From positions 165,269-229,268 of the forward strand of contig CAWDXO010000009.1 of NCBI GenBank assembly GCA_963806335.1: a DNA stretch of 64,000 bases. The letters run 5' to 3'. Under the pieces are notes generated by a model that was not told the origin of the DNA, did not search any database, and worked only from the letters and a program-made list of their open reading frames with translations. Source of the stretch: an uncultured Actinomycetes bacterium (GTDB lineage: Bacteria; Actinomycetota; Actinomycetes; Streptosporangiales; Streptosporangiaceae). Shown here in pieces: positions 83 through 49,803 of the stretch; position 1 is the stretch's first letter; every line of letters starts with the position of its first letter. A program made the position numbers and the translations under genes.

Positions 83-96
83 GGGACTTTGGTCCA
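83..96. promoter_or_regulatory. DevR/DosR-type operator, GGGACTTTGGTCCA (1 mismatch to GGGAC-N4-GTCCC)
   Basis: Palindrome about 100 nt upstream of the dosR start. It has the same core as the other boxes in the window, which suggests autoregulation. Confidence 0.55.
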
Positions 97-192
97 TACC
101 AGCGGCCGCACGAAGTGCCTAGAGTAGAAGTGACACAGGGCCCTGGCCGGGATGACCTTCCGGGGCGGCAGGCGCGAACATCAGGAGTCAGG

Positions 193-909
193 GTGACAAG
201 TCCGGTCGGCGGACCCGGGTCCGGCGAGGCAAAAGACCCGATCGCGGTGTTTCTTCTCGATGATCACGAGGTGGTCCGCCGGGGCGTCCGTGACCTGCTG
301 GAGGCCGAGCCTGATATCCGGGTGATCGGCGAGGCCGGGACCGCGTCCTCAGCGCTGGCCCGGATTCCGGCGCTGCGCCCGGATGTGGCCGTCCTCGACG
401 TGCGGCTGCCGGATGGCGACGGGGTGTCAGTGTGCCGGGAGATCCGCTCGAAGATGCCCGAGGTGGCCTGCCTGATGCTCACCTCGTTCGGCGACGACGA
501 GGCGCTGTTCGACGCGATCATGGCGGGCGCGGCGGGCTACGTGCTGAAGCAGATACGGGGCACCGACCTGGTCGGCGCGGTGCGCACGGTGGCCTCGGGC
601 CAGTCGATGCTCGACCCGCGGGCCGCGAGCCAGCTGATGGCCAGGCTGCGGGATCAGTCCACCAAGCACGATCCGCTGGCCGGCCTGTCCGCGCAGGAAC
701 GCAGGATCCTGGAGCTGATCGGGGAAGGCCTGACCAACCGGCAGATCGGCGAGCGGATGTTCCTGGCCGAGAAGACCGTGAAGAATTACGTCTCGGCGCT
801 GTTCGCCAAGCTGGGCATGGAGCGGCGCACCCAGGCCGCCGCGTACGCGGTTCGCGCCTTCGGCGGCCAGCACGACAGCGAAGAACGATACTCCGAGCAC
901 GGCGACTAG
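193..909 (+). CDS. dosR: NarL/LuxR-family response regulator, DevR/DosR orthologue
   Basis: Receiver domain ([13 protein letters not shown]...[14 protein letters not shown]) plus LuxR HTH ([38 protein letters not shown]), collinear with M. tuberculosis DevR as I recall it. The ORF is open from GTG 115; GTG 193 is preferred because AGGAG lies 5 nt upstream. Confidence 0.9.
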
Positions 910-933
910 ACACCACGCAAGTCCCGGCGACTC

Positions 934-947
934 GGGACCTAGTTCCC
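934..947. promoter_or_regulatory. DevR/DosR-type operator, GGGACCTAGTTCCC (1 mismatch)
   Basis: Lies between the dosR stop and the PPOX-fold gene start (984). Confidence 0.5.
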
Positions 948-983
948 TGGTTCCGCCGTCGGATCCACGGCACTGTGGCCACC

Positions 984-1445
984 ATGCACACCGACGACGC
1001 CCCGGCCCTAGAGCAGCTGCCTAGGTATGAATCTCTCCGGCTCCTGGCCACCGTGCCCATCGGCCGGGTCATCTTCACCCGGCGGGCGCTGCCAGCGGTG
1101 GAGCTTGTCCATTTCGCCCTCGATAACGGTGACATCATCATCAGGGCCGACCCGGGTGACGCGCTCGCCACCGATATCCGCGACGCCGTCGTCGCTTTCG
1201 AGGCCGATAGCCTCGACGTGGCCCACCGGGCCGGCTGGAGCGTCGCGATCATCGGACGGTCCCGGGTGGTGACCGATCCGGGCGAAATCGACCGGCTGCA
1301 AGAGATAGGCCTGCGCTCCTGGGGCGCCGGGGAGGCGGCACATTTCATCCGTATCTCGCCGGAGCTACTGACCGGGCGGCGGCTTCTCGCTAATGGTCAA
1401 GGGAACGACCGGGAGGACGTGGCGGTGCGGCTCATTTCAGCCTAG
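984..1445 (+). CDS. Pyridoxamine 5'-phosphate oxidase (PPOX)-fold family protein, paralogue 1
   Basis: ATG 984 lies inside the longer track ORF 432..1445. Motifs: LPRYESLRLLATVPIGRVIF, PAVELVHFALDNGDIIIR, GWSVAIIGRSRVV, FIRISPELLTGRRL. It is paralogous to 22337, 49279 and the C-terminal half of 13262. Confidence 0.75.
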   Translation: MHTDDAPALEQLPRYESLRLLATVPIGRVIFTRRALPAVELVHFALDNGDIIIRADPGDALATDIRDAVVAFEADSLDVAHRAGWSVAIIGRSRVVTDPGEIDRLQEIGLRSWGAGEAAHFIRISPELLTGRRLLANGQGNDREDVAVRLISA

Positions 1446-3167
1446 GGGTACCCGCCACTCCAGGGCCGTTCCTGGCGGCGATGCGGCCGGGTCCGCCGGG
1501 CCGAGGCGCAGCTCGCCGCCGAGCTTCTCGGCGCGGCTGGCCATATTGCGCAGCCCGCTGCGTCTGCCCTCGGCCGGGATGCCGCTCCCGTTGTCGGTGA
1601 CCTGGACGGCGAGAATCCGGTCCGGATCCACGTCCACGGACACGTCTACCTGGCTGGCGCCCGAGTGCCTGGCCGCGTTCGACAGCGCCTCACGCAATGC
1701 GGCGAGCACATGCTCGGCTACCTCGGGGCGGACATGGGTGGCGAGGCCGGAGCCCAGTCGCAGCGACGGGGCGAAACCAAGCATCGACGACATCTCCTCC
1801 ACTAGGCCGACAATGTCCCCGCGCAGGTCCGGCGGGCGCACGGCGTCACCACCCTGCAACGCGAAGATGGTGGCGCGGATGTCCTTGATGGTCTCGTCCA
1901 TCGCGTCCACCGCGTTGGTGACGCGGCTCGCCACTTCGGGCCTGGTAATCATCGGCATGGTGCCCTCCAGCGACATGCCGGTAGCGAAAAGCCGCTGGAT
2001 GACCAGGTCATGCAGGTCGCGGGCGATCCGGTCCCTGTCCTCGAACAGCGACAGCCGTTCGGCTTCCGCGTGGGTAGCCGCGAGTTCGAGCGCGACGCCC
2101 GCCTGCGCGGCGAACGACGCCACCACATCGGCCTGGGCCTGGGGGAACGGCGCCGCGCCGTGGCGGCGACCCACGGTGAGCACGCCGCGGACGTTGCCCG
2201 GCACCCCGAGCGGGAACAAGATCGCGGGCCCGATATGGCTCATCACGCCGCGGGCGGCCTGGGAAGCGCGCTCGTCATCAGCGAAATCAGCGGACGTGAT
2301 GGGCTCGCCGCCGGCTAGCACCTGGCCGGACAGCGACTGCCCGGCCGGCAGCACCAGACCTCGGGTGGCGGCGGCGCCGTCACCCTCGGCGTAGGTCATG
2401 GTCAGCCGGCGTCCTTCCTCGTCGGGGAGGGCGAGCACGACAAGGTCGGCTCCGGACAGCTCGAGCGCCCGCCGGGTGATATCGGCCAGGACCTCGCCCG
2501 GCTCGGAGCCTGACAGCAGCCGCGTGGTGACCTCGGCGCTGGCCTGGACCCAGCGTTGCTGGCGGCGGGCGGTGTCATAAAGCCGCGCGTTCTCGATGGC
2601 CACGCCGGCCGCGGCACCCAAGGCGACGAGCACCGCCTCGTCGTCCTCGGTGAACTCGCCGCCGCCGCGCTTGTTGGTCAGGTAGAGGTTGCCGAACACC
2701 TGGTCGCGGAGCCGGATCGGGACACCCAGGAAGCCGTGCATCGGCGGGTGCCCCGCGGGGAAGCCTGACGATTGCCGGTGCGCGGCGATATCGGCCAGCC
2801 GCAGCGGCCCTGGATCATCGATCAGCAGGCCGAGCAGGCCGCGTCCCTCGGGCCAGTGATGGATCTGCCTGATCTCGTCCTCGGTCAGGCCGACCGGGAT
2901 GAACTCGGCCAGCCGCCCGTCGTCACCGATGACGCCGAGCGCGCCGTACGTCGCGTCCACCAGCTTGACCGCGCTCTCGACGATCCGCCTGAGCGTGGAC
3001 TCCAGGTCCAGGCCGGAGCCGATGGCGACGACCGCCTCCAGCAGCCCGCGCATCCGGTCCCTGGTGGCCAGCACCGCCTGCAGCCGCCCCTGCAACTCAG
3101 CGAGCAACTCGTCAAGTTTCAGGTGTGGCAGCAGGAGCTCTGGGCTCTTGGCCGCACTAGGTTCCAA
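1437..3167 (-). CDS. devS: Tandem-GAF sensor histidine kinase, DevS/DosT-like (HisKA_3 + HATPase_c)
   Basis: Two GAF-like regions are followed by the H-box RIARDLHDLVIQRLFATGMSL and an ATPase part (LSNAARHS, DNGSGIP). The N-terminus (LDELLAELQGRL...GLDLESTLRRIV) resembles mycobacterial DevS. Its 3' end overlaps the convergent PPOX gene by 9 nt. Confidence 0.85.
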   Translation of the reverse strand: MEPSAAKSPELLLPHLKLDELLAELQGRLQAVLATRDRMRGLLEAVVAIGSGLDLESTLRRIVESAVKLVDATYGALGVIGDDGRLAEFIPVGLTEDEIRQIHHWPEGRGLLGLLIDDPGPLRLADIAAHRQSSGFPAGHPPMHGFLGVPIRLRDQVFGNLYLTNKRGGGEFTEDDEAVLVALGAAAGVAIENARLYDTARRQQRWVQASAEVTTRLLSGSEPGEVLADITRRALELSGADLVVLALPDEEGRRLTMTYAEGDGAAATRGLVLPAGQSLSGQVLAGGEPITSADFADDERASQAARGVMSHIGPAILFPLGVPGNVRGVLTVGRRHGAAPFPQAQADVVASFAAQAGVALELAATHAEAERLSLFEDRDRIARDLHDLVIQRLFATGMSLEGTMPMITRPEVASRVTNAVDAMDETIKDIRATIFALQGGDAVRPPDLRGDIVGLVEEMSSMLGFAPSLRLGSGLATHVRPEVAEHVLAALREALSNAARHSGASQVDVSVDVDPDRILAVQVTDNGSGIPAEGRRSGLRNMASRAEKLGGELRLGPADPAASPPGTALEWRVPLG

Positions 3168-3327
3168 CTAGTAGATCCTTCCGCCAACGATATGCCGCAA
3201 GACTAACCGCCGGGCGCGCCGCCGGCTATGACGCAAGTGGTCAGTTGCGGGTAAAAGCAAGACCATTTATACCGAACGGACGGTGGGACCTGTCCCCGGT
3301 GCGGCAGGCGGCTCGGGGACCGGTCGG

Positions 3328-5700
3328 CTACCGCAGCAACTCGTAACCGGGGTTGATCATCGCGGGACGGCCGTCAGCCGCGATGCCGACCATGCCGTGC
3401 AGGCGGATCCGGCAGCCCGGCTCGATGCCCGCGATGCGCGTGCGCCCGTAGAACAGCGCGACCAGGTCGCCGGTGGAGTCGGTAATCTCGCACGCCAGAA
3501 CGCTGTTACGTTCGGTCGGCCGGACTTCAGCCGTGTGCAGGCGGCCCTGGACGGTGGCCCGGCGTGGCTCGCGCAGCGACCCGATGGGATCGGTCCCCGA
3601 CGGCGGGACCGGCCGCTCGTAGTCAAGGAGGCTATCGGTCTTGGCCGGCCTATCCCGCTTGGCGTGTATCGTCTCGACCTTGTGGCGCACGTCGAAGGGG
3701 ATGATGGTGGCCGCCGCGCCGGGAACGCGGCTCACCACGCGAGCGATCCGGTCCGCGGTGTGGTCGTGCAGCAGCCGCCCAGCCAGCGGCGGGTAGCTGC
3801 GGCGCGGCAGAACCATGGTCACGTGCGTGCCGGGCGCGGCCGCCTCGCTGGCGGCCAGCCGGGCCGCGGCGTGGGCGAGCCGCCGGTCCGGACAGTCGGC
3901 GAGCTCGAGCGGCACCCCGGTGCCGGCGTCCAGCCACTGCTGTCTGAGCTTGTCCGCCCGGGCACTGTCCAGGCTGAAGTGCACCGCGCGTAGCGCCGAA
4001 GGCCGCAGGCTCTTGGCGTACCTGAGCGCGGCGATGGCGGCCAGGTCGTAGCTGTCTATCATCAGCAGCACAACCCGGCGAGAGTAGTTCGGCGGGGACG
4101 GAGGCAGATCACCGCGCCCTGGCTGGTCGAGGATGGCGGCTTCGTGGCGGTATTGCCGGTTGAGGCGGATGAGAGCGTACACCAGGACCGGGAAGATGAT
4201 CACGATCAGCCACGCGCCCTCGGTGAACTTCACCACGGCGAACAGCACCACCACCAGCGCCGTGTAGATCCCGCCGGTCATGTTGATCACGAGGCGGTGC
4301 CGCCAGCCCGCCTCCCTGGTCCGGCGGTGGTACCTGGCCATGCCGAACCCGGCCATGGCGAAACCGGTGAACACGCCGATGGCGTAGAACGGGATGAGGG
4401 CGTCGACGGTCGCGCCCGCCACCAGCATCAGCGACAGCGACAGCACGGCCAGCAGGATGATGCCGTTGGAGAACACCAGCCGGTGACCGCGCCTGTTCAG
4501 CCACCGGGGCAGGAAGGAGTCCTCGGCGACGAAGCTGGCCAGGAACGGGAACCCGGTGAAGCTGGTATTGCCGCCGGTGAACAGGATAGCCGCGGTGGCT
4601 ATCTGCAGCACGAAGAACATGACCTGCCCCGCCGCGGTGGGTCCGAAGACGAGCTCGGCTTCCTGCGCGAGGACGGTCGGGAAGCCGGTGGTGTAAGGGA
4701 TCGCGTGCGTGATGTGCGCGAGCCAGGAGATCCCCGCGATCAGGACCGCGACCACCGATCCCTGCATGGCCAGGATCTGCCGGGCATGGCGCCCTTCCGG
4801 CGGGCGCAGCGCGCTGACCGCGTTGGAGACGGCCTCGATCCCGGTCAGCGACGAGCCGCCGTTGGCGAAGGCCTTAGCCATGATGAACAGGGCGCCAAAG
4901 GCGATGAGCCCGGAATGCGACCCGATGCCGACGGCACCGTGCCCCGGCACGGCCTGCGGCAGGCCGCTGGTCAGCTCGCGGACCACGCCGATCACGATCA
5001 TCAGGACCACCGAGGCGGCGAACAGGTACGTGGGAAACGCGAAAATCCGGCCGGCCTCACGGATGCCGCGCAGGTTTCCTATGCACATGATCAAAATGGC
5101 CAGCACGGAGATGACCAGCAGGATTTTGGGACCGATCAGCGGAATGCCCGACAGCGCCGGAAACGCGGATACGATCGCCGCGCTGCCCGCCGCCGTCTGC
5201 ACCGCGACCGTTACCACGTAGTCGATCAGCAGCGCGACCGCGGCGACCTGCGCGACGTGGGGTCCGAAGTTCTCCCGCGCCACCACGTATGAGCCGCCGG
5301 CCCTGGTGTACACCGACACCACCTCGCGGTAGGAAAGCACCACCAGGAGAACCCCGAACAAGACCAGCAGGGTCAGCGGCAAGACCAGCGTGAAGGCCGC
5401 CAGCCCGAAGAAGGGGAGCAGCGCGTAGAGGATCTCCTCGGTGCCGTAAGCGGCCGACGAGAGCCCGTCACAGGAGAGCACACCCAGCGCCAGCGGCCGG
5501 GACAGGCGCTGGTTTTGCAGCTGCTCCGATACCAGCGGCGCCCCGAGCAGGCGGCGCTTTGCGAGGTACCAGAATCCTTCCGGCGGTTCGCCGCCCAGGG
5601 ACGGCGCCGATCCAGCCCACGGCGTCCGCGGGGCGGCCTTCGCCGAGGCCGGCCGCCTCGACACCGACTCGGAATCAGCGACTGCCACCATGTCCTCCAT
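3328..5700 (-). CDS. APC-superfamily permease fused to a cytoplasmic alpha/beta domain and a C-terminal OB-fold domain
   Basis: About 12 predicted TM helices (residues about 70-520). These are followed by a soluble region (RRVVLLMIDSYDLAAIAAL...VTMVLPRR), then an OB-like tail (ATVQGRLHTAEVRPTERNSVLACEITDSTGDLVALFYGR...RIRLHGMVG). Confidence 0.7.
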   Translation of the reverse strand: MEDMVAVADSESVSRRPASAKAAPRTPWAGSAPSLGGEPPEGFWYLAKRRLLGAPLVSEQLQNQRLSRPLALGVLSCDGLSSAAYGTEEILYALLPFFGLAAFTLVLPLTLLVLFGVLLVVLSYREVVSVYTRAGGSYVVARENFGPHVAQVAAVALLIDYVVTVAVQTAAGSAAIVSAFPALSGIPLIGPKILLVISVLAILIMCIGNLRGIREAGRIFAFPTYLFAASVVLMIVIGVVRELTSGLPQAVPGHGAVGIGSHSGLIAFGALFIMAKAFANGGSSLTGIEAVSNAVSALRPPEGRHARQILAMQGSVVAVLIAGISWLAHITHAIPYTTGFPTVLAQEAELVFGPTAAGQVMFFVLQIATAAILFTGGNTSFTGFPFLASFVAEDSFLPRWLNRRGHRLVFSNGIILLAVLSLSLMLVAGATVDALIPFYAIGVFTGFAMAGFGMARYHRRTREAGWRHRLVINMTGGIYTALVVVLFAVVKFTEGAWLIVIIFPVLVYALIRLNRQYRHEAAILDQPGRGDLPPSPPNYSRRVVLLMIDSYDLAAIAALRYAKSLRPSALRAVHFSLDSARADKLRQQWLDAGTGVPLELADCPDRRLAHAAARLAASEAAAPGTHVTMVLPRRSYPPLAGRLLHDHTADRIARVVSRVPGAAATIIPFDVRHKVETIHAKRDRPAKTDSLLDYERPVPPSGTDPIGSLREPRRATVQGRLHTAEVRPTERNSVLACEITDSTGDLVALFYGRTRIAGIEPGCRIRLHGMVGIAADGRPAMINPGYELLR

Positions 5701-5870
5701 CGTCAGGCCGCCCGTTCCGCGCTTTCTCCAGCTACAAGGGGATGATCACAGGAAAGCGTCGCAACGCCGGTCCGGCCAGGGCCAAAGGTGAGGGACCTTA
5801 GGCACCTGGGTCACTACAGTCGCGCGGTAGCCAGCTGACCGGGGTTCGACGGGGAGAGACCTGGCTTGCC

Positions 5871-5884
5871 GGGACCTTGGTCCC
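5871..5884. promoter_or_regulatory. DevR/DosR-type operator, GGGACCTTGGTCCC (perfect)
   Basis: Sits in the divergent intergenic region between the permease (-) and a USP (+, start 5999). A weaker copy, GGGACCTTAGGCAC, lies at 5792..5805. Confidence 0.75.
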
Positions 5885-5998
5885 CGGCCCACGGGCCGGA
5901 ACGCCCCTGGCCGTCTCGCCCGGCACACGATCGGATGATCTCGGAGGACGAGGGTGCCCGGGGCACCCGGCGCCTCCGGTCTAGCGAGGAGGACCAGC

Positions 5999-6874
5999 AT
6001 GTCAGCAAAGCCCATCGTGGCCGCTACGGACGGCTCCGAGGAATCGCTGCGGGCGGTCGAATGGGCCGCCAGGGAGGCCGTGCTCCGCGGCGCGCCGCTG
6101 CGCATCGTGTCCGCCGCCGCGCTGCTGCCCCGCATGATCGAGGGCCGGGAAGGGTCTGACCTCGGTACCGTGACCGATGCCCTCAGCCAGAACCGTGACC
6201 TGGCTCTGGCCGGCTCAGCGGAACGGGCGGCCAAGACGTCACCCGGCCTGCTGATCGACACCGATCGCCTGACCGGGCCACCCGCCCAGGCGGTCACGGA
6301 GAGCGGAGCGGGCGCGCTGATGCTGGTCGTCGGGTCCCGCGGCCTCGGCGCGTTCACGGCCATGGTCCTCGGCTCCGTGAGCCGGTACGTGGCCACCCAC
6401 GCGTCCTGTCCGGTCGCGGTCATCCGCGACGAGTCCATGGCCGCGCACCGGCAGGTCTGCGTGGGCATCGGCGACCTGGAGCACTGCGCCGACTCACTCA
6501 CCTTCGCCTTCGAAGAGGCGGCCGATCGGCAGGCCAGCCTGCTGGCCGTTCATTGCTGGCACGCACCGCAAGCTGACATCTCCCGGGCCGGGCAGGCCTT
6601 TACGGCGCCGACCGCACACGCGGTGGAAGCCGAAGCCAGCCGCTGGCTGGCGGCGCTGCTCGACGGCTGGCGGGCTAAGTACCCAGACGTCCCGGTCAGC
6701 CAGGACGTCGTACATGGCCATCCGGGGCGGACCCTGGTCGGCTTGTCGGCCCGCGCCGACCTGATGGTCCTCGGCAGGCACGCCAGGCATTCCGGCCTGC
6801 CGGGTCCCGGCGCGGTCACGCACGCTGTGCTGAACCACGCGCACGGCCCCGTCGTCACGGTCCCTTCATCCTGA
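5999..6874 (+). CDS. Universal stress protein, tandem Usp domains
   Basis: ATG 5999 is preceded by GAGGAGG. Motifs: MSAKPIVAATDGSEESLRAVEWAA...LMLVVGSRGLG in the first domain, and LMVLGRHARH...VTHAVLNHAHGPVVTV in the second. Confidence 0.9.
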   Translation: MSAKPIVAATDGSEESLRAVEWAAREAVLRGAPLRIVSAAALLPRMIEGREGSDLGTVTDALSQNRDLALAGSAERAAKTSPGLLIDTDRLTGPPAQAVTESGAGALMLVVGSRGLGAFTAMVLGSVSRYVATHASCPVAVIRDESMAAHRQVCVGIGDLEHCADSLTFAFEEAADRQASLLAVHCWHAPQADISRAGQAFTAPTAHAVEAEASRWLAALLDGWRAKYPDVPVSQDVVHGHPGRTLVGLSARADLMVLGRHARHSGLPGPGAVTHAVLNHAHGPVVTVPSS

Positions 6875-7006
6875 CCATGCCTCATGGCGGAATCTGTTCC
6901 ATCCCTCGTCGCGGTCAGGACCTTTGGCCCTAAACACCCAGCCAGGTCGTCATGTGATGGTGGGCCGAGCGCATCAACGTGTACTTAGGACAGGTGTCAG
7001 AAGACG

Positions 7007-7372
7007 ATGACCCACGTTGAGTACCAGACCGCAGGCGATCGAGGCGTTGCCGGGATCGAGATCCTGAGGATGCCAGCAGAGCTGGATCTCGCCACCAGTG
7101 AGAGCGTGGTCGCGCAGGGTTACGCGGCCATCGCCTGCTCAGCCTGGGTGCTGCTCGACCTGACCGGCCTGTCCTTCTGCGACGCCCAGGGCCTCAGTGC
7201 CTTCGTCCGGATCGCCAACCAGGCCGATGCTGCAGGCTGCGGTTTCGGCCTCATCGGGCCGCGGCCGCCAGTGGCCAAGATACTGCGGATCAGCGGCCTG
7301 GATAGCCGCATGCGGGCCTTCGCGACCGTCGACGACGCACTGGCGCTCCGCACCGTTACGACCCGCGTCTAG
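7007..7372 (+). CDS. STAS-domain anti-sigma-factor antagonist
   Basis: Motifs: LDLTGLSFCDAQGLSAFVRIANQA...PPVAKILRISGLD. A weak box, AGGACCTTTGGCCC, lies at 6917..6930 upstream. Confidence 0.8.
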   Translation: MTHVEYQTAGDRGVAGIEILRMPAELDLATSESVVAQGYAAIACSAWVLLDLTGLSFCDAQGLSAFVRIANQADAAGCGFGLIGPRPPVAKILRISGLDSRMRAFATVDDALALRTVTTRV

Positions 7373-42625: not shown

Positions 42626-42730
42626 CGAACGTGAGGGAGGGCGGATGAACTGGCTGCGCACCATTACCGCCTTCGACGGGCCGGAGCTGACGGCGGAGGC
42701 GACGGAACCAGGCGACGACGGCCCGCAAGC
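42626..42730 (+). pseudogene. Relic fragment of a GltD-like oxidoreductase gene (about 35 codons)
   Basis: By eye it is about 80% identical at the nucleotide level to 43711..43818 of the intact gene downstream. It encodes NWLRTITAFDGPELT in both places. Confidence 0.65.
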
Positions 42731-42745
42731 TATGAGCACAAAGCC

Positions 42746-42759
42746 GGGCCGAAAGTCCC
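42746..42759. promoter_or_regulatory. DevR/DosR-type operator, GGGCCGAAAGTCCC (1 mismatch)
   Basis: 30-40 nt upstream of the first possible starts (GTG 42788, ATG 42797) of the GltD-like gene. Confidence 0.5.
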
Positions 42760-42787: not shown

Positions 42788-44437
42788 GTGGCCGATATGG
42801 CCTTGCCACCAGCCCGACCAGACGTCACGTCGTTGCCAGATCTGCTGCACGGCCGGTCCCGCGCCGGTCCCGTCCGGCAGGAGCGACCCCGCTACGTCGA
42901 CCTGCTGCCGCCGTGCAATGCCGGCTGCCCGGCCGGGGAGAATATCCAGGCGTGGCTGGCGCACGCCGAGACAGGTAACCACGAGCGGGCGTGGCGGCAG
43001 CTGACCGCGGACAACCCGATGCCGGCCATCCACGGCCGGGTCTGCTACCACCCGTGCGAGAGCGTCTGCAACCGGGCCAGCCTGGACAGCGCTGTCTCTA
43101 TTCACTCGGTCGAGCGGTTCCTCGGCGATCTCGCGCTCGAGCGGGGGTGGCCGTTCGACCCGCCCCCGGTCCGTACCGGCCGGCGGGTGCTGGTCATCGG
43201 CGCCGGGCCGAGCGGGCTTTCCGCCGCCTACCACCTGGCCCGGCTCGGCCACGAGGTCGAGATCAGGGATGCGGGCGAGCAAACCGGCGGGATGATGCGC
43301 TACGGCATCCCGTCCTACCGGATGCCACGCGACGTCCTGGACGGCGAGGTTGACCGGATCGCCGCGATGGGCGTGCGGATCACGCTCGGCCACCGGGTGG
43401 AGGACCTGGACGCGGAGCGGCGCGAGGGCGGCTTCGACGCGGCCTTCGTGGCGGTGGGCGCGCACCTGTCCAAGCGGGTCGACATCCCGGCCAAGGACGC
43501 GGGACCGATCGTCGACGCGGTGTCGTTCCTGCGCAGCGTCGCCTCGGGTGAGCGGCCGGTGATCGGGCGGCGCGTCGCCGTCTACGGCGGCGGCAACACC
43601 GCCATGGACGCCGCCCGGGTGGCCCGCCGCCTGGGCGCGAACGACGCGCTCATCGTCTACCGCCGCACCCGGGCGCAGATGCCCGCCCATGAAGAAGAGG
43701 CGGAAGAGGCCGAGCGGGAGGGAGTGCGGATCAACTGGCTGCGCACTATCACCGCGTTCGACGGCCCTGAGCTGACGATCGAGGCGATGGAGCTTGACGA
43801 GCACGGATTCCCGCAGCCGACCGGACGGTTCGAGACGCTGGCCGCGGACACGGTGATCCTCGCCCTCGGCCAGGAGAGCGACACCGCGTTCCTGCGCCAG
43901 GTGCCCGGAGTGGAATTCAGCCGGGACGGCACCGTACAGGTGTCGACGTCCATGATGACCGGATGCGCCGGCGTGTTCGCCGGAGGCGACATGGTGCCGT
44001 CCGAGCGCACCGTGACGGTCGGCGTAGGGCACGGCAAGAAGGCGGCCAAGAACATCGACGCCTGGCTACGCGGAACCGCGCCGGCGAATACGGCCAAGCA
44101 CGAGCAGGTCTCGTTCCGCGACCTGAACTTGTGGTATTTCGGTGACGCGGCCCGCAGGCAGCAGCCGGAGGCCGTCCCGGAGGAGCGGATCGCGGATTTC
44201 GGCGAGGTGCTCGGCGGCTTGTCCGAGGTCGAGGCGACGTACGAGGCACGCCGCTGCCTGTCGTGCGGCAACTGCTGCGAGTGCGACGGCTGCCTGGGCG
44301 CGTGCCCCGAGGACGCGGTGATCAAGCTGGGGCCCGGCCATCGCTACGAGTTCAACTATGGCAAGTGCACCGGCTGCGGCGCGTGTTACGAGCAGTGCCC
44401 GGTGCACTCGATCGAGATGATCCCGGAGGACGAATGA
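42788..44437 (+). CDS. GltD-family NAD(P)H-dependent FAD oxidoreductase with N-terminal Fe-S motif and a C-terminal 2x[4Fe-4S] ferredoxin domain
   Basis: Motifs: CNAGCPAGENIQ...VCYHPCESVCNR; VLVIGAGPSGLSAAYHL; VAVYGGGNTAMDAAR; and C-terminal CLSCGNCCECDGCLGACP and CTGCGACYEQCP. Confidence 0.8.
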   Translation: MADMALPPARPDVTSLPDLLHGRSRAGPVRQERPRYVDLLPPCNAGCPAGENIQAWLAHAETGNHERAWRQLTADNPMPAIHGRVCYHPCESVCNRASLDSAVSIHSVERFLGDLALERGWPFDPPPVRTGRRVLVIGAGPSGLSAAYHLARLGHEVEIRDAGEQTGGMMRYGIPSYRMPRDVLDGEVDRIAAMGVRITLGHRVEDLDAERREGGFDAAFVAVGAHLSKRVDIPAKDAGPIVDAVSFLRSVASGERPVIGRRVAVYGGGNTAMDAARVARRLGANDALIVYRRTRAQMPAHEEEAEEAEREGVRINWLRTITAFDGPELTIEAMELDEHGFPQPTGRFETLAADTVILALGQESDTAFLRQVPGVEFSRDGTVQVSTSMMTGCAGVFAGGDMVPSERTVTVGVGHGKKAAKNIDAWLRGTAPANTAKHEQVSFRDLNLWYFGDAARRQQPEAVPEERIADFGEVLGGLSEVEATYEARRCLSCGNCCECDGCLGACPEDAVIKLGPGHRYEFNYGKCTGCGACYEQCPVHSIEMIPEDE

Positions 44438-47400
44438 CACGCGCCACGGTCGACGGTAACGAGGCCGCGGCGTCGGTCGCCTACCGGCTCAACGAGGTTT
44501 GCTGCATCTACCCGATCACGCCGTCGTCGCCGATGGCCGAGCTCGCGGACGAGTGGTCAAGCAAGGGACGGCCGAACCTGTGGGGCGGCGTGCCGTCCGT
44601 GGTCGAGATGCAGCACGAGGGCGGGGCCGCGGGCGCGTTGCACGGTGCGCTGCAGAGCGGGGCCCTGGCCACCACCTTCACGGCGTCGCAGGGCCTGCTG
44701 CTGATGATCCCCAACATGTACAAGATCGCCGGGGAGCTGACTCCGGCCGTGATCCACGTGGCGGCCCGGTCGCTGGCCGCGCAGGGGCTGTCCATCTTCG
44801 GTGACCACTCGGACGTGATGGGGGTGCGGCAGACCGGTTTCGCGCTGCTCGCTTCCGCGTCGGTGCAGGAGGCCCACGACCTCGCGCTGGTGGCACAGGC
44901 CGCCACGCTGGCGACCCGGGTGCCGTTCGTGCACTTCTTTGACGGGTTCCGCACCTCGCACGAGCTGAACACGATCGAGATGCTGGCCGACGACGACCTG
45001 CGCGCGCTGGTGCCCGAGGCGCTGATTCGCGCGCACCGCGGCCGGGGGCTGTCACCGGAGCGGCCGTTCATCCGGGGCACCGCGCAGAACCCGGACGTCT
45101 ACTTCCAGGCACGCGAAACGGTGAACCCGTTCTACGACGCCGTGCCGGGCGCGGTGCAAGAAGCGATGGACGGCCTCGCCGCCCGTACCGGCCGCCAGTA
45201 TCACGTCGTCGACTACGCCGGTCACCCCGAAGCCGACCGGGTGATCGTCGTGATGGGCTCGGCGGCTGAGACGATCGGCGAGACCGTGGCCTACCTGTGC
45301 GGCCAGGGCGAGCGGGTGGGCATGCTGCAGGTCCGCCTGTACCGGCCGTTCCCGGCTCGGGCCCTGCTCGACGCGCTGCCCGCGAGCGCCGGACGGATCG
45401 CCGTGCTCGACCGGACCAAGGAGCCAGGTTCGAATGGCGAGCCGCTGTTCCTCGACGCGGTCACCACGCTGGCCGAGGCGCACACCGGCGGTGAGCGCGC
45501 GGTGCTGCCGCTGGTGACGGGCGGCCGCTACGGCCTGTCGTCGAAGGAACTCACCCCGGGCATGGTGGCCGGTATTTTCGCGGAACTGGCCCGCGAGCAC
45601 CCGCGGCCCCGGTTCACGATCGGCATCAACGACGACGTGTCCGGCCTGAGCCTGCCTTATGACCGGTCGCTGGACATCGAACCGCCCGGCACGATCCGCG
45701 CGGTCTTCTTCGGCCTCGGCTCGGACGGCACGGTCGGCGCGAACAAGAACACGATCAAGATCCTCGGCGCCGAGGAGAACCTGAACGCGCAAGGCTACTT
45801 CGTCTATGACTCGAAGAAGTCGGGCTCGCAAACGGTGTCGCACCTGCGGTTCGGGCCGCAGCCGATCCGCGCGCCTTACCTGGTGCAGCAGGCCAGCTTC
45901 GTCGGCTGCCATCACTTCGGCCTGCTGGACCGGGTCGACGTGCTCGGCCTGGCGGCCCCGGGAGCGACGCTGCTGCTCGACTGCAAGTTGCCAGCGGATG
46001 AGGTCTGGGATGCGCTGCCCCGCCCGGTCCAGGAGAAGATTCTCGCCAAACGGATCGTGGTTTACGCGATCGATGCCGGGCACATCGCTCGCGAGGCCGG
46101 CCTGGCCGGCCGGACCAACACCGTGCTGCAGACCTGCTTCTTCGCGATCTCGGGCGTACTGCCCCGGGAAGAAGCGATCGACAAGATCAAGAAGTCGATC
46201 ACCAAGACCTACGGCCGCCGCGGCGCCGAGGTGGTCGAGAAGAACCTGTCCGCGGTCGATCACACCGTGGCGGCGCTGCACCAGATCGAGGTGCCCGGCC
46301 GGGTGACGTCCGCGCGGGAACTGCCCGCGATGGTGCCGGCCAGCGCGCCGGAATTCGTCCGCACCGTCACCGCGGAGATGATGGCCGGCCGCGGCGACGA
46401 GCTGCCGGTCAGCATGCTGCCGGTGGACGGCACCTACCCGAGCGGCACCACGGCGTATGAGAAGCGCAACATCTCCGAGCTGGTCGCGGAATGGGATCAG
46501 GACCTGTGCATCCAGTGCGGCAACTGCAGCTTCGTCTGCCCGCACAGCGTGATCAGGGCCACCTACTACGACGAGTCGCTGCTGAAGGGGGCGCCATCGG
46601 AGTTCAAGTCGGCGCCGCTGGACGCCCGCGGGCTCCCGGACACCCGCTTCACGCTGCAGGTCTACGTGGAGGACTGCACCGGATGCGAGCTGTGCGTCCA
46701 GGCCTGCCCGGTCGGGGCGCCTGACAACCCCGAGCGTAAGGCGATCAACCTCGCGGCCCGGGCGCCGCTGGTGGCCGCCGAACGGGACAACGTCGCGTTC
46801 TTCGAGACGCTGCCGGTGGCCGACCGGTCCCGGGTGGACTTCGGCACGGTGCGCGGCACGCAGTTCCTGCAGCCGCTGTTCGAGTTCTCCGGCGCCTGCG
46901 CGGGCTGCGGCGAGACGCCGTACGTCAAGCTCCTTTCGCAGCTGTTCGGCGACCGGCTGATGGTCGCCAACGCCACCGGCTGCTCCTCGATCTACGGCGG
47001 GAACCTGCCCACCACGCCGTGGACGACCAACGCCGACGGGCGCGGGCCGGCCTGGTCGAACTCCCTGTTCGAGGACAACGCCGAGTTCGGCCTCGGGTTC
47101 CGGCTGGCCGCCGACCGGCACACCGAGCTAGCCCGAAGCCGCCTGGACGAGCTCCGCGAGGCGGTCGGCGCCGACCTGGCCGACGAGATCCTCGGCGCGC
47201 CCCAGCTCACCGAGTCGGAACTGGCCGCCCAGTTCGACCGGGTCGCCGAGCTGAAGCGGCGGCTCGAGGCCCTGGACCAGGACTACGGGCATGTCGCCGA
47301 TCTGCGCAGCGTGGTCGATCACCTGGTCCGGCGCAGTGTGTGGATCGTCGGCGGGGACGGCTGGGCCTACGACATCGGCTCCTCGGGCCTGGACCACGTG

Positions 47401-48012
47401 CTGGCCACCGGGCGCAACGTGAACGTGCTGGTGCTCGACACCGAGGTCTACTCCAACACCGGCGGGCAGTCATCGAAGTCGACACCGCTCGGCGCCGTCG
47501 CCAAGTTCGCCTCGGCAGGCAAGACCGTGCCGAAAAAGGACATCGCGCTGCAGGCCATCGCCTACGGCAACGTCTACGTCGCCCGGGTGGCCATGGGCGC
47601 GGACCCGCAGCAGACCCTGCGTGCCTTCCGCGAGGCGGAAGCCTACGACGGGCCGTCGCTGGTCATCGCCTACAGCCACTGCATCGCGCACGGCATCGAG
47701 ATCCGCACCGGACTCGACCAGCAATACCGCGCCGTGGCCAGCGGGCACTGGCCGCTGATCAGGTACGACCCGGTGATCAGGACGGCCGGGGGTAACCCGT
47801 TCCTGCTCGACTCGCCGCGGCCGCGCATCAGCCTGGCCAGCTACACCCAGCGCGAGCTGCGGTACCGCTCGCTCAGCAATACCAACCCGGCCGAGGCCGA
47901 GCGGCTGGGAGCCCTGGCCCAGGAAGCGGTCGACCAGCGCTGGAGCACCTACGAGGAGATGGCTACCCGCGGAGCGCAACAGTTCCCGGCCGACGCGCGG
48001 AGGGACGACTGA
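44434..48012 (+). CDS. nifJ: Pyruvate:ferredoxin (flavodoxin) oxidoreductase, single-chain NifJ type
   Basis: ATG 44434 forms an ATGA overlap with the upstream stop. The product is about 1192 aa. Motifs: CCIYPITPSSPMAE, CIQCGNCSFVCPH, CTGCELCVQACP, and the TPP motif GGDGWAYDIGSSGLDH. Confidence 0.95.
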   Translation: MTRATVDGNEAAASVAYRLNEVCCIYPITPSSPMAELADEWSSKGRPNLWGGVPSVVEMQHEGGAAGALHGALQSGALATTFTASQGLLLMIPNMYKIAGELTPAVIHVAARSLAAQGLSIFGDHSDVMGVRQTGFALLASASVQEAHDLALVAQAATLATRVPFVHFFDGFRTSHELNTIEMLADDDLRALVPEALIRAHRGRGLSPERPFIRGTAQNPDVYFQARETVNPFYDAVPGAVQEAMDGLAARTGRQYHVVDYAGHPEADRVIVVMGSAAETIGETVAYLCGQGERVGMLQVRLYRPFPARALLDALPASAGRIAVLDRTKEPGSNGEPLFLDAVTTLAEAHTGGERAVLPLVTGGRYGLSSKELTPGMVAGIFAELAREHPRPRFTIGINDDVSGLSLPYDRSLDIEPPGTIRAVFFGLGSDGTVGANKNTIKILGAEENLNAQGYFVYDSKKSGSQTVSHLRFGPQPIRAPYLVQQASFVGCHHFGLLDRVDVLGLAAPGATLLLDCKLPADEVWDALPRPVQEKILAKRIVVYAIDAGHIAREAGLAGRTNTVLQTCFFAISGVLPREEAIDKIKKSITKTYGRRGAEVVEKNLSAVDHTVAALHQIEVPGRVTSARELPAMVPASAPEFVRTVTAEMMAGRGDELPVSMLPVDGTYPSGTTAYEKRNISELVAEWDQDLCIQCGNCSFVCPHSVIRATYYDESLLKGAPSEFKSAPLDARGLPDTRFTLQVYVEDCTGCELCVQACPVGAPDNPERKAINLAARAPLVAAERDNVAFFETLPVADRSRVDFGTVRGTQFLQPLFEFSGACAGCGETPYVKLLSQLFGDRLMVANATGCSSIYGGNLPTTPWTTNADGRGPAWSNSLFEDNAEFGLGFRLAADRHTELARSRLDELREAVGADLADEILGAPQLTESELAAQFDRVAELKRRLEALDQDYGHVADLRSVVDHLVRRSVWIVGGDGWAYDIGSSGLDHVLATGRNVNVLVLDTEVYSNTGGQSSKSTPLGAVAKFASAGKTVPKKDIALQAIAYGNVYVARVAMGADPQQTLRAFREAEAYDGPSLVIAYSHCIAHGIEIRTGLDQQYRAVASGHWPLIRYDPVIRTAGGNPFLLDSPRPRISLASYTQRELRYRSLSNTNPAEAERLGALAQEAVDQRWSTYEEMATRGAQQFPADARRDD

Positions 48013-49046
48013 TGGACCTTTCGACCCGCTACATGGGCCTGGCGCTGCGAAACCCGCTCGTCGCCTCCGCGTCCCCGCTCTCGAATACCGTCGACGGGGT
48101 CCGGCGGCTCGCCGACGGCGGTGTCGGCGCGGTGGTGCTCTACTCCCTGTTCGAGGAGCAACTGCGCCGGGAGGCCGAACAGAACGCGCGGCTGGCCGAG
48201 ATGGGCACGGAGGTTTTCGCCGAGGCCCTGTCCTACTTCCCGGCCGAGGCCGAGGCTGAGGCGACGGAGGATGGCAGCGCGGATGAACCTAGCCCGCGCC
48301 GCTACCTGAGCCTGCTCGAGCGCGCCGCGGCGGCGGTCGAGATACCGGTCATCGGCAGCATCAACGGGGTGACACCCGGCGGCTGGACCAGCTACGCGCG
48401 CGCGATGCAAGACGCCGGCGCCGCGGCGATCGAGCTGAACATCTACTACATCCCAGGCGACCCGCACATTACCGGCCGCGAGGTCGAGCAGCGGCACATC
48501 GACATCCTGTCCCAGGTCAAGGACGCGGTGACCGTGCCGGTGGCGGTCAAGCTGAGCCCGCACTTCAGCTCGGCCGGCGAGATGGCCCTGCGGCTTGACG
48601 AGGCGGGCGCGGACGGCCTAGTGCTGTTCAACCGGTTCCTGCAGCCCGACATCAACCTCGAGACCCTCGCGGTGCAGCCCGACGTGTACCTCTCCAGCCC
48701 GGCCGAGGCCCGGCTGCCGCGCACCTGGATCTCCATCCTGCGCCAGCATCTGCGTGCCTCCCTCGCCGCGACGACCGGCGTCGAGGGACCGGCCGACGTG
48801 ATCAAGTACCTGCTCGCGGGCGCCGACGTCGTGATGACGGCATCCGCGCTGATCCGGCACGGCCCCGAGCACGCCGCCGTCCTGCTTGACGGCCTGTCCG
48901 ACTGGATGGCCCGCAAGGGTTACCCGTCGGTCGCCGGAGTGCGCGGCATGCTCGCCCTGCCTGCAGGTACCGACGAGGCTGCTTACGAGCGCGCAGGCTA
49001 CGTCCGCGCGATGCAGGCCGCCAACAGCTCCCGCGGGCCGTGGTGA
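48012..49046 (+). CDS. Dihydroorotate-dehydrogenase-like FMN protein (class 1 fold, no Fe-S domain)
   Basis: The ATG overlaps the nifJ stop (TGATG). Motifs: LRNPLVASASPLS...VIGSINGV...AIELNIYY...VAVKLSP...GLVLFNR. Confidence 0.75.
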   Translation: MDLSTRYMGLALRNPLVASASPLSNTVDGVRRLADGGVGAVVLYSLFEEQLRREAEQNARLAEMGTEVFAEALSYFPAEAEAEATEDGSADEPSPRRYLSLLERAAAAVEIPVIGSINGVTPGGWTSYARAMQDAGAAAIELNIYYIPGDPHITGREVEQRHIDILSQVKDAVTVPVAVKLSPHFSSAGEMALRLDEAGADGLVLFNRFLQPDINLETLAVQPDVYLSSPAEARLPRTWISILRQHLRASLAATTGVEGPADVIKYLLAGADVVMTASALIRHGPEHAAVLLDGLSDWMARKGYPSVAGVRGMLALPAGTDEAAYERAGYVRAMQAANSSRGPW

Positions 49047-49278
49047 CGATTAAGAAGGGCTGACCTGCGCAACCGGTGACCGAAGTCCTAGCAGCCGGGG
49101 ACCTTCAGTAATGGCGAGAGCGCCGCCGCGGGCGGGACACTGGCACTATCAGGTCAGGCAAGGCCCGGGCCGGGCCGGGCCGGAAGGCTCCCGTCGAGCG
49201 GCGCCGACGGGTAAGCGAGTGCGGGCGGCCGGCGCCGGGCGTCGGCCACCCCACCCGCCGATGGCTAGGCGGCAGTAT

Positions 49279-49701
49279 CTAGTGAGCAGGGCGGATGCGG
49301 CGGCCAGTGATGCGGGACGGGACGATCCGCACGAACAATTCCCGGTCTCCGGCGGGCCACGGCTCGACGCCCGCTTGCTCGGCAGACTTGCGCTCGGCCT
49401 CGGACACGTGATGGGCCGGTCCCTGGATGAGCACACTCCAGCCCTCGCGCCCGGCTACGTCGATCTCGTCGATCTCGAACGCCACCTGGTAGTCCCCACC
49501 GACGATCCCGGTCTGCAGGTCCTCGTCCAGCGCACTGTGCCGGACCGTGCGGAACACGATCGCTCCGTCATGCCACTGGTAGTTCACCGGCAGCACGGCC
49601 GGGCCGAACCGGCTTTGGTAGGCGATCCGTCCGACTCCGCCCGGCGATATCAGCCGCAGGCTCTCCGATTCATCGAGTTCCTCGATCGTACGGTCAGACA
49701 T
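49279..49701 (-). CDS. PPOX-fold family protein, paralogue 4
   Basis: Motifs: LDESESLRLISPGGVGRIAY, PAVLPVNYQWHDGAIVFR, GWSVLIQGPAHHV, FVRIVPSRITGRRI. Confidence 0.8.
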   Translation of the reverse strand: MSDRTIEELDESESLRLISPGGVGRIAYQSRFGPAVLPVNYQWHDGAIVFRTVRHSALDEDLQTGIVGGDYQVAFEIDEIDVAGREGWSVLIQGPAHHVSEAERKSAEQAGVEPWPAGDRELFVRIVPSRITGRRIRPAH

Positions 49702-49789
49702 GCCTGATCCTCCCGGGTGCGAGGCCTGGTCGCGTAGTTACGACCTTAGCGTCATGGACGAGGCCGATGACCTTCAACCCGGCTAGACA

Positions 49790-49803
49790 TGGACTTTCGG
49801 CCC
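49790..49803. promoter_or_regulatory. Candidate DevR/DosR-type operator, TGGACTTTCGGCCC (2 mismatches)
   Basis: Sits in the divergent region between PPOX paralogue 4 (-) and adh (+). It resembles the box at 18004. Confidence 0.4.

Follow-up and report, generated by a model that had tools for sequence, protein, structure and literature searches.

A predicted DevR/DosR-type regulon clustered around Dev-box palindromes in an uncultured Streptosporangiaceae bacterium

The window analysed here is a 64-kb stretch of DNA (contig CAWDXO010000009.1, forward-strand positions 165,269 to 229,268, assembly GCA_963806335.1) from an uncultured Actinomycetes bacterium of the family Streptosporangiaceae. It was examined together with the 9.8 kb to its left, giving 73.8 kb of a 183-kb contig, to which exact matches of encoded proteins assign the record ENA ERZ25039525 contig_86835; coordinates are those of the window, negative numbers lying to the left of it. 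The element under study is the 14-bp palindrome GGGAC-N4-GTCCC (GGGACNNNNGTCCC), here called the Dev box, which recurs around the gene for a DevR/DosR-type response regulator. A sequence-only reading had proposed that the genes behind these boxes form one dormancy regulon. The gene map was built from third-position G+C content, Pfam and NCBIfam and was checked in part against public gene calls; by this map 86.3% of the window is coding and 13.7% intergenic. The predicted regulatory genes lie at the left edge.

193–909, plus strand: devR/dosR-type response-regulator gene, 238 amino acids, its start codon GTG 193 being preceded by the ribosome-binding site AGGAG; the public gene call agrees exactly.
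1437–5700, minus strand: probable operon of an amino-acid-permease-like gene (3328–5700) followed by a devS/dosT-like kinase gene (1437–3167), co-transcription being presumed.

The boxes are given below with their mismatches to GGGAC-N4-GTCCC and their positions relative to the nearest genes. A W-W centre denotes A or T at both central spacer positions.

83–96, GGGACTTTGGTCCA, one mismatch: predicted autoregulatory site midway between the starts of devR and of a divergent usp gene just outside the window, 103.5 nt from each.
934–947, GGGACCTAGTTCCC, one mismatch: 43.5 nt upstream of its target, the PPOX-fold gene 984–1445.
5792–5805, GGGACCTTAGGCAC, two mismatches, W-W centre: about 100 nt upstream of the permease–devS operon (minus strand).
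5871–5884, GGGACCTTGGTCCC, perfect: upstream of a tandem-USP gene; kept as AGGACCTTAGTCCC in the related locus L002.
6917–6930, AGGACCTTTGGCCC, two mismatches, W-W centre: 83.5 nt upstream of a STAS gene.
7429–7442, AGGACCTTCGTCCC, one mismatch: 207.5 nt upstream of the open reading frame (ORF) 7643–8029, with TANNNT hexamers 23 and 26 nt past the box.
8986–8999, GGGCAGAAGGTCCC, two mismatches, W-W centre: upstream of a minus-strand tandem-USP gene.
9142–9155, GGGTCGAAGGTCAC, two mismatches, W-W centre: about 105 nt upstream of a flavodoxin-like gene, with which the phosphate acetyltransferase gene (Pta) may be co-transcribed.
12469–12482, GGGACCTAGGTCCC, perfect: 133.5 nt upstream of the USP gene at 12609.
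13093–13106, TGGACGAACGTCCC, one mismatch: 162.5 nt upstream of a helix–turn–helix (HTH)-PPOX gene.
15124–15137, GGGACCAATGGCCC, one mismatch: 92.5 nt upstream of the ATG (15038) of the glyceraldehyde-3-phosphate dehydrogenase (GAPDH) gene.
15155–15168, GGGACTAAGGTCCC, perfect: in the divergent GAPDH/CBS-BON region.
15221–15234, GGGACCGAGGTCCC, perfect: upstream of the CBS-BON gene, with a secondary box GTGACGTCCGGCCG 23 bp downstream.
18004–18017, GGGACTTTCGGCCC, one mismatch: 137.5 nt upstream of the Tgs ATG at 17873.
18034–18047, GGGCTGAAGGTCCC, two mismatches, W-W centre: 101.5 nt upstream of an AMP-binding gene.
20704–20717, GGAACTTTAGTCCC, one mismatch: first of three before an Rv1733c-family gene, overlapping the last 10 nt of the preceding CBS-BON gene.
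20728–20741, GAGACCAAGGGCCC, two mismatches, W-W centre: second of the three, missing from the earlier list.
20749–20762, GGGCCATAAGTCCC, one mismatch: third of the three, 86.5 nt upstream of the Rv1733c-family gene and 21 bp from the second.
21564–21577, GGGACCTCGGTCCC, perfect: upstream of an HSP20 gene, with a secondary box ATGACGAAGGTCGC 20 bp downstream that is conserved in L003.
22288–22301, AGGACCTTCTTCCC, two mismatches, W-W centre: 42.5 nt upstream of a PPOX ATG, a geometry that fits a leaderless transcript.
24334–24347, GGGACTTTGGCCTC, two mismatches, W-W centre: abuts the box at 24348.
24348–24361, GGGACTTTGGTCCC, perfect: 118.5 nt upstream of a cytochrome-b-like gene.
30990–31003, GGGTCCTTAGTCCT, two mismatches, W-W centre: 99.5 nt upstream of the hydrogenase Fe–S subunit operon (minus strand).
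36296–36309, AGGACCCAAGTCCC, candidate, one mismatch, centre C-A: 250 nt upstream of a P-II gene; the weakest assignment.
37533–37546, GTGACCAAGGTCCC, one mismatch: 67.5 nt upstream of the USP gene 36999–37472 (minus strand).
37548–37561, GTGACAAAGGTCCC, one mismatch: 115.5 nt upstream of the USP gene 37670–38089.
41105–41118, GGGACTTACGCCCT, two mismatches, W-W centre: 108.5 nt upstream of a usp-pgk-pgm operon (minus strand).
41785–41798, GTGACGGAGGTCCC, one mismatch: between a cyclic-nucleotide (cNMP)-binding gene (minus strand) and the ORF at 41892 (plus strand), with a secondary box GTGACGTCTGGCCG 23 bp downstream.
42746–42759, GGGCCGAAAGTCCC, one mismatch: 35–45 nt upstream of a GltD-like–PFOR operon (PFOR, pyruvate:ferredoxin oxidoreductase), with TAGCGT 25 nt past the box, which fits a leaderless transcript.
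49790–49803, TGGACTTTCGGCCC, two mismatches, W-W centre: in the divergent region between a PPOX gene (minus strand) and an alcohol dehydrogenase (ADH) operon (plus strand).

Perfect copies of the palindrome number seven in the window, compared with 0.34 expected from dinucleotide-preserving shuffles (none of 100 shuffles reached seven). The sequence-only reading had listed six of them (5871, 12469, 15155, 15221, 21564 and 24348), had put the expectation well below one and had stated that all perfect copies are intergenic. The six and the low expectation were recovered, and all six are intergenic; the statement fails for the seventh, GGGACAGCGGTCCC at 58556, which was missed. This copy lies inside an AAT-family gene, has a G+C-rich spacer (AGCG) and is probably a chance match. 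With at most one mismatch, 23 copies were found against 7.9 expected, and 18 of the 23 fall in the intergenic 13.7% (binomial p = 5e-12). All 13 one-mismatch sites listed earlier are present; three others (9350, 55161 and 55925) are coding and have G+C-rich spacers.

Two-mismatch matches are more numerous (58 in the window, 17 intergenic and 41 coding). A or T occupies both central positions in 11 of the 17 intergenic matches and in five of the 41 coding ones (Fisher p = 1e-4). These 11 sites are the ten listed earlier plus 20728, so that the earlier choice of ten from 58 is justified by the W-W centre that every one of them has. Over all intergenic sites with at most two mismatches the W-W centre is found in 25 of 35, the intergenic background frequency of such a pair being 0.11. 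Because the search pattern does not require this centre, it provides independent evidence that the sites are one kind of element. The stricter pattern GGGACYWWRGTCCC gave 22 matches with at most two mismatches, against 2.5 expected. About 30 boxes are credible; extrapolation of the match rates in coding DNA to intergenic DNA indicates that about one or two of the 30 could be due to chance. The boxes at 15124, 37533 and 37548 are intergenic only after correction of the GAPDH and USP start codons. No credible box was present in 18.6 kb of control DNA outside the island (31.0–36.2 kb, 57.3–64 kb and the far left flank).

Nineteen sites gave the consensus (C/A)GGGAC(C/T)(T/A)(A/T)(G/A)GTCCC(G/T), i.e. 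sGGGAC(C/T)WW(G/A)GTCCCs. It matches the core of the published Mycobacterium tuberculosis DevR motif TTSGGGACTWWAGTCCCSAA (PMC2275270; Park 2003 consensus), as had been claimed from the sequence alone; the outer TT/AA flanks of the published 20-mer are not conserved. Among 60 half-sites, mismatches were counted nine times at G1, seven times at G2, once at G3, 14 times at A4 (mostly A to C) and four times at C5, position 4 being A in 46 and C in ten. The least variable bases, G3 and C5, correspond to G5 and C7 (18-mer numbering) of the M. tuberculosis Dev box, which are essential for binding (Chauhan et al. 2011, PMC3177182).

Weak secondary boxes were sought at centre-to-centre distances of 20–23 bp. 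A match of at least 6/10 was found for 23 of the 30 boxes (mean best match 6.1/10), compared with 4–15 of 30 (means 4.7–5.6) in nine control offset sets; this evidence for tandem boxes is statistical and is not a footprint. A smaller second peak occurs at 30–33 bp. Tandem, helically phased boxes are centred at −42.5 and −63.5 in M. tuberculosis promoters (PMC3177182). Such secondary boxes explain both the likeness over 40 nt of the promoters at 15221 and 41785 and the conservation of GTCATGACGAAGGTCGC, a stretch that follows the hspX-like box in the window and in the relative L003.

The box centres lie 29–208 nt upstream of start codons in 29 of the 30 cases with the revised gene starts, the exception being 36296, and seven divergent intergenic regions have boxes in common. 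The proposed spacing of 30–200 nt and the frequent placing in divergent regions are thereby upheld. The corresponding distance in M. tuberculosis is 17–221 nt (PMC3177182). A TANNNT hexamer 23–26 nt past the box was found at three promoters only (devR, ORF 7643 and the GltD-like gene), which are too few to prove class-II geometry; two PPOX genes have xAxxxT at the same offset, with a spacing that fits leaderless mRNAs. No larger repeat unit with the box inside it emerged from a repeat search, a result that speaks against an origin from MITE or REP elements.

The best match of the regulator among solved structures is M. tuberculosis DevR (3C3W; E = 1.8e-83, 283 bits), the next family members, VraR and NarL, scoring lower (148 and 113 bits). 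The two proteins are 63% identical over 205 residues, with 45 of 63 residues common in the C-terminal domain. D54, T82, K179, K182 and N183 of DevR are all conserved (D54 and T82 as residues 69 and 97 of the window protein) and the 12-residue recognition helix is identical. With the box at 83, these data agree with the earlier description of a close DevR orthologue with its own box at the left edge. The kinase gene lies 0.5 kb from the regulator gene and probably rides behind the boxed permease-like gene. Its product has the domain order GAF-GAF-HisKA_3-HATPase; GAF-A aligns with the DevS and DosT haem domains (E of about 1e-49), both the haem histidine (HPPM) and the distal tyrosine (LYLT) being conserved.

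The predicted regulon would comprise about 45 genes in about 28 boxed transcription units, an assignment supported by the sequence comparisons given here. Operons were assigned from short or overlapping intergenic gaps. Besides the regulator and the permease–kinase operon, the units are as follows.

984–1445, plus strand: PPOX-fold (Pyridox_ox_2) gene.
5954–6874, plus strand: tandem-USP gene; the public call starts at 5999.
7007–7372, plus strand: STAS-domain (anti-sigma antagonist-like) gene.
7643–8029, plus strand: ORF of 128 amino acids, no family match.
8062–8958, minus strand: tandem-USP gene; the public call starts at 8907.
9251–12425, plus strand: flavodoxin-like gene, small ORF and Pta (10107–12425), the last by operon assignment only.
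12609–13028, plus strand: USP gene.
13262–13975, plus strand: HTH_3 and PPOX-fold gene.
14037–15038, minus strand: GAPDH gene.
15257–16267, plus strand: CBS-pair and BON gene, start uncertain.
16437–17873, minus strand: WS/DGAT triacylglycerol synthase (Tgs-like) gene; ATG 17873 with its ribosome-binding site fits the family N-terminus.
18142–20713, plus strand: AMP-binding acyl/acetyl-CoA synthetase gene, DUF7455 ORF (19758–20090) and CBS-BON gene (20075–20713).
20842–21459, plus strand: Rv1733c-family membrane protein gene (NCBIfam NF050032, 129 bits, cut-off 80).
21606–22112, plus strand: HSP20/alpha-crystallin (hspX-like) gene.
22337–22792, plus strand: PPOX-fold gene.
24473–28088, plus strand: cytochrome-b-like membrane protein (24473–26329), [NiFe]-hydrogenase large subunit (about 26215–27654) and HycI-type maturation protease (27543–28088).
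28098–30897, minus strand: hydrogenase Fe–S subunit (29740–30897), ORF (29124–29945) and small subunit (28098–29117).
36553–36981, plus strand: P-II family gene, membership weak.
36999–37472, minus strand: USP gene.
37670–38089, plus strand: USP gene.
38058–41003, minus strand: operon of a tandem-USP gene (40050–41003), phosphoglycerate kinase (PGK, 38860–40053) and histidine-phosphatase-type phosphoglycerate mutase (PGM, 38058–38867).
41133–41606, minus strand: cNMP-binding-domain protein gene.
41892–42509, plus strand: membrane protein with two transmembrane segments, no family match; found near devR in 14 related loci, seven of them with a box.
42788–49046, plus strand: operon of a GltD-like NAD(P)H Fe–S flavoprotein (42788–44437), PFOR (about 44263–48012) and a dihydroorotate-dehydrogenase-like protein (48012–49046).
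49279–49701, minus strand: PPOX-fold gene.
49868–57265, plus strand: probable 7.4-kb operon of Zn-ADH (49868–50908), two CBS-BON genes (50923–51624 and 51656–52333), a fusion of GNAT and ADP-forming acetyl-CoA synthetase (about 52224–54842) and phosphoketolase (54842–57265), co-transcription being presumed.

The dormancy-type group consists of eight USP genes, HSP20, the Rv1733c-family gene, five CBS-BON, five PPOX-fold and two STAS genes, the cNMP-binding gene and, by a weak link, P-II, the membership of which depends on the one weak box at 36296, 250 nt upstream. The mycobacterial set named in the sequence-only reading is reproduced, boxed USP, HSP20, WS/DGAT, CBS and Rv1733c-family genes being identified with Pfam and NCBIfam. 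Tgs and the AMP-forming ligase form a carbon-storage group (triacylglycerol storage), and GAPDH and the usp-PGK-PGM operon a glycolytic one. The fermentation and redox group comprises the flavodoxin-like–Pta unit, the GltD-like–PFOR–dihydroorotate-dehydrogenase-like operon, the hydrogenase, of which the large subunit is of the sulfhydrogenase or group 3b type, and the ADH–CBS–CBS–GNAT/ADP-forming acetyl-CoA synthetase–phosphoketolase operon, in which two intergenic gaps measure 15 and 32 nt and the genes otherwise overlap. The extension by glycolytic and fermentative genes proposed earlier thus stands in so far as the genes are present in boxed units; several have no box of their own, the P-II link is weak and part of the extension is already known elsewhere.

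Several features of these genes were recorded in addition. The Pta frame is a single 772-residue open frame with all three domains in the window sequence, and the public annotation splits it into a 149-residue AAA_26 product and a 527-residue DRTGG+PTA product. The [NiFe]-hydrogenase is divided between two convergent boxed operons; in the relative L015 the Fe–S subunit, ORF, small subunit and large subunit are colinear. The present position of the large-subunit and HycI protease genes, behind the cytochrome-b-like gene and apart from the other subunits, seems to be due to an inversion. The cytochrome-b-like product (618 residues) begins with a four-helix domain resembling cytochrome b/b6, followed by a large non-membrane domain and a helix at the C-terminus; its gene, with 84% nucleotide identity to L022, is the best conserved of the island. 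A 107-nt stretch just before the GltD-like promoter (42615–42721) is 79% identical to 43700–43806 within the same gene and looks like a relic of partial duplication. At 22771–22885 a 23-nt tandem repeat GCCCGTCGCGCCCGGCCCATGAC (about 4.5 copies, 96–100% identical, no Dev box) extends from the final PPOX codons across the whole interval up to a STAS-PAS gene.

The island spans about 60 kb, with 30 boxes between 83 and 49803 and two more within 2 kb to the left. It continues for about 3 kb beyond the left window edge (L083:6700–9808, window −3100 to 0), where a usp gene divergent from devR is followed by an HDAC-like deacetylase gene (L083:8061–9269) and a usp–usp pair. The last two have in common a perfect box GGGACAAAGGTCCC (window −1943) and a degenerate box (−1993). 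No boxes were found farther left in the 9.8-kb flank, and no credible box was found in the window to the right of 57.3 kb. The segment 31031–36173 is a box-free insert that encodes a BlaI-type repressor, an M48 BlaR-like sensor-protease, the undecaprenyl-diphosphatase BacA, an NAGPA-like glycosidase and an FAD-linked oxidase; these genes resemble a module for cell-envelope stress that is unrelated to the regulon. Within the insert, at 34422–34565, an 18-nt tandem repeat of about eight copies lies in the 5' part of the minus-strand NAGPA-like gene and would encode a hexapeptide repeat. Rfam and tRNA scans gave no matches, and no integrase or tRNA marks the island as a recent insertion.

For comparison, 80 loci around devR orthologues were examined. 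The closest relatives of the regulator (92–94% identical) come from soil metagenome-assembled genomes labelled Nocardiopsis, Streptosporangiaceae or Actinomycetes. The 80 loci contain 385 boxes, compared with 119 in a reversed-sequence control; non-coding DNA, 22% of the total, holds 225 of the 385. In 59 of 79 loci a box precedes devR by at most 300 nt. Boxes also precede the genes for HSP20 (5/6), the cytochrome-b-like protein (6/8), PPOX (23/34) and USP (31/57), compared with 96/601 for unassigned genes. The same gene families recur around devR in shuffled order. The half-site differs between clades, being GGGCC-N4-GGCCC in the Streptomyces and Kitasatospora loci and GGGAC-N4-GTCCC in the Streptosporangiales loci (L040, L044, L052–L054, L059–L064, L067, L069–L075 and L080 compared with L004, L008, L012, L018, L035, L039, L046, L049, L056 and L058). 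The only regulator residues that separate the A-type from the C-type box groups are I58V, F106L and Q168R, none of which is in the recognition helix. Q168R (DevR Q153) is the only residue of the C-terminal domain that tracks the box change, a correlation confounded by phylogeny as the groups are different clades. The comparison shows what appears to be drift of the operator between lineages with an unchanged recognition helix.

Taken together, the consensus, the W-W centre, the position-specific conservation, the tandem phasing, the homology of the regulator and the conserved links between boxes and genes point to a DevR/DosR-type regulon at the level of sequence. We consider it likely, with a probability of about 0.85, that the window holds most of an approximately 60-kb hypoxia/redox survival island under DevR/DosR-type control via Dev boxes in a soil Streptosporangiales-like actinomycete. 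In the proposed mechanism, the DevS/DosT-type haem-GAF histidine kinase (1437–3167) would sense loss of O2, or NO or CO, and would phosphorylate the regulator (193–909) on the aspartate equivalent to D54. The phosphorylated dimer would bind sGGGAC(C/T)WW(G/A)GTCCCs through the helix with the K179, K182 and N183 equivalents and would cooperatively bring additional dimers to weak boxes at a distance of two helical turns. From a position over the −35 region it would then activate the approximately 28 units, devR included (autoregulation), and the output would be the dormancy set together with a metabolic module that keeps ATP and redox state in balance when respiration stops. The signal, the binding of the regulator and its activating effect are drawn here by analogy with the M. 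tuberculosis, M. smegmatis and Streptomyces coelicolor systems, and operon membership is deduced from the gaps between genes.

Five points weigh against this interpretation. The devR and kinase genes are convergent and separated by the PPOX gene 984–1445, so that their pairing is presumptive. No individual box precedes the genes for phosphoketolase, Pta, PGK, PGM, PFOR, the hydrogenase large subunit and the kinase; these are taken to be co-transcribed with boxed genes. A scan for −10 hexamers at fixed distance found no clear −10 element at most promoters. Two related loci, L022 and L029, carry two DevR paralogues at most 6 kb apart, and a paralogue elsewhere in the present genome could share or own the sites. 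Finally, the orthologous Streptomyces system is tied to development and stress and not strictly to hypoxia (PMC5069765).

This last point leads to the best of the alternatives, namely that the boxes are real operators and the signal is not that of hypoxia dormancy: the system might mainly couple stress or redox state to development such as sporulation, respond to another GAF ligand or repress some of the targets. In the osdR mutant of S. coelicolor, genes of development and of general stress are changed (PMC5069765); sporulating Streptosporangiales are the closest cultured relatives, and the island holds the two STAS anti-sigma-antagonist-like genes and the STAS-PAS gene. We nevertheless regard this as unlikely. 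The kinase keeps the haem-ligand histidine and distal tyrosine of DevS/DosT; the anaerobic-type enzymes that dominate (PFOR, group-3b-like hydrogenase, ADH and those of substrate-level phosphorylation) make sense only when oxygen is scarce; and boxes 30–200 nt upstream of starts with tandem phasing are the architecture of M. tuberculosis activation.

Much less probable is that the palindromes are bound by a paralogous NarL/LuxR-family or other protein encoded elsewhere, the adjacent DevR-like gene being merely a target. The paired DevR-like genes of L022 and L029 would suit such an arrangement, and the island also encodes an XRE-type HTH-PPOX protein. However, the DNA-contact residues and the whole recognition helix are identical to those of M. 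tuberculosis DevR, the site of which is this very motif; the box upstream of devR is kept across several families, which is typical of autoregulation; and OsdR, which is equally distant from DevR, binds Dev boxes in vitro (PMC5069765). A reading of the copies as repeats without regulatory function (REP-like elements, small hairpins or terminators, recombination scars) or as chance occurrences in G+C-rich DNA is effectively refuted. In its favour, a 5-bp hairpin can form from the core, relatives differ in the arrangement of the island and three to four chance-type matches lie in coding DNA. Against it, the shuffles exclude chance, and the copies share no flanking sequence (unlike REP or MITE elements), belong to no larger repeat family, lie upstream and not downstream of genes with no T-tract after them, and are conserved at orthologous promoters where the surrounding DNA diverges.

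A further idea, which we regard as doubtful, is that the island is a self-contained, exchangeable hypoxia-survival cassette with feedback of its output on the regulator. Both DevR and OsdR are phosphorylated by acetyl-phosphate in vitro, and the island encodes two enzymes that produce or consume this compound, Pta (10107–12425) and phosphoketolase (54842–57265). In M. tuberculosis, acetylation of DosR at K182 blocks DNA binding (PMC5999986); the island and its left flank encode the weakly Pat-like GNAT fused to ADP-forming acetyl-CoA synthetase (52224–54842), the cNMP-binding protein (41133–41606) and the HDAC-like deacetylase. Judging from this gene content, one may speculate that acetyl-phosphate from phosphoketolase and Pta, and a K182 acetylation state set by the GNAT fusion, cNMP-binding and HDAC-like proteins, could act back on DevR. 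If so, carbon flux, besides O2, NO or CO, would lock the dormancy programme on or off. As a corollary, the boxes could mark break points at which the island was reshuffled between lineages, the inverted hydrogenase segment being an example.

The predicted regulon would extend the DevR/DosR paradigm to an uncultured soil lineage of Streptosporangiales, in a compact and nearly complete form readable from sequence. It suggests that presumed obligate aerobes of soil pair dormancy proteins with an anaerobic-type toolkit (PFOR, ferredoxin and group-3b-like hydrogenase in series; phosphoketolase, Pta and ADP-forming acetyl-CoA synthetase; ADH; lower glycolysis) under one oxygen-sensing switch. Its practical value lies in a motif and a target list that are ready for metatranscriptomics of soil hypoxia; the concept itself is unchanged.

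The system resembles M. tuberculosis DevR–DevS/DosT in the GGGAC-N4-GTCCC core with its A/T centre, the same critical bases, second boxes about 21 bp away, boxes common to divergent promoters and a box before the regulator's own gene. The 63% identical regulator with the same DNA-contact residues, the haem-GAF sensor kinase, a regulon of about 45–48 genes and USP, hspX, tgs, CBS (Rv2626c-like) and Rv1733c genes as targets are further likenesses. Rv1733c itself has three boxes (PMC3177182), as does its relative in the window. The differences concern the inner half-site base (mostly GGGACC/GGTCCC in the window, GGGACT/AGTCCC in M. tuberculosis), the layout (nearly all targets in one locus of about 60 kb, as opposed to about ten scattered loci) and the regulator and kinase genes, which are co-transcribed in M. 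tuberculosis and convergent with a PPOX gene between them in the window. The likeness of the gene sets is incomplete: nitroreductases (acg, Rv3131), narK2/narX, fdxA, ctpF, nrdZ and pfkB are not among the window genes and may be encoded in another part of the genome, whereas PFOR, hydrogenase, phosphoketolase, Pta, ADP-forming acetyl-CoA synthetase, ADH, GAPDH, PGK and PGM are added. The content of DosR regulons varies between species.

In S. coelicolor, OsdR/OsdK (SCO0204/SCO0203) and the island SCO0167–0181/SCO0198–0219 (Urem 2016, PMC5069765) likewise combine a DevR orthologue (about 61–63% identical to DevR) and an autoregulatory box with targets tightly clustered round the regulator. Eight of the 11 S. 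coelicolor usp genes lie there, and ADH, PPOX and Crp/cNMP-type genes are predicted OsdR targets. OsdR binds M. tuberculosis Dev boxes in vitro and 27 elements are predicted round osdR (PMC5069765). The Streptomyces box itself is GGGCC-N4-GGCCC with a G+C-rich spacer (consensus AGGGCCGATCGGCCCT), whereas the window has GGGAC/GTCCC with an A/T centre. The concentration of targets in one locus is borne out by boxes running from 83 to 49803 with none in the control DNA, but such a layout has already been described for OsdR. The S. coelicolor island has the nitrate reductase Nar2, NarK2 and pyruvate phosphate dikinase; that of the window has hydrogenase, PFOR and phosphoketolase instead.

M. smegmatis (Berney et al.; bioRxiv 10.1101/2023.09.11.557286) is a soil obligate aerobe in which DosR activates the fermentative group 3b hydrogenase Hyh, Tgs, HspX, a PPOX/FDOR-type flavin protein and glycolytic/gluconeogenic enzymes, the outcome being hydrogen fermentation and carbon storage. 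A term search of that report found no mention of PFOR, phosphoketolase, Pta or ADP-forming acetyl-CoA synthetase in the regulon. The M. smegmatis genes are not confined to one island as those of the window are, and the window hydrogenase differs in its two convergent operons, one of them led by the unusual cytochrome-b-like gene. In the body of literature searched, no DosR regulon of Streptosporangiales was described. The predicted system is of the same kind as the M. tuberculosis DosR regulon, with a clustered layout like that of the OsdR island. What appears to be new is the lineage, the very high density of boxes and the combination of PFOR, phosphoketolase, Pta and ADP-forming acetyl-CoA synthetase, a module that represents a modest extension of the known regulon.

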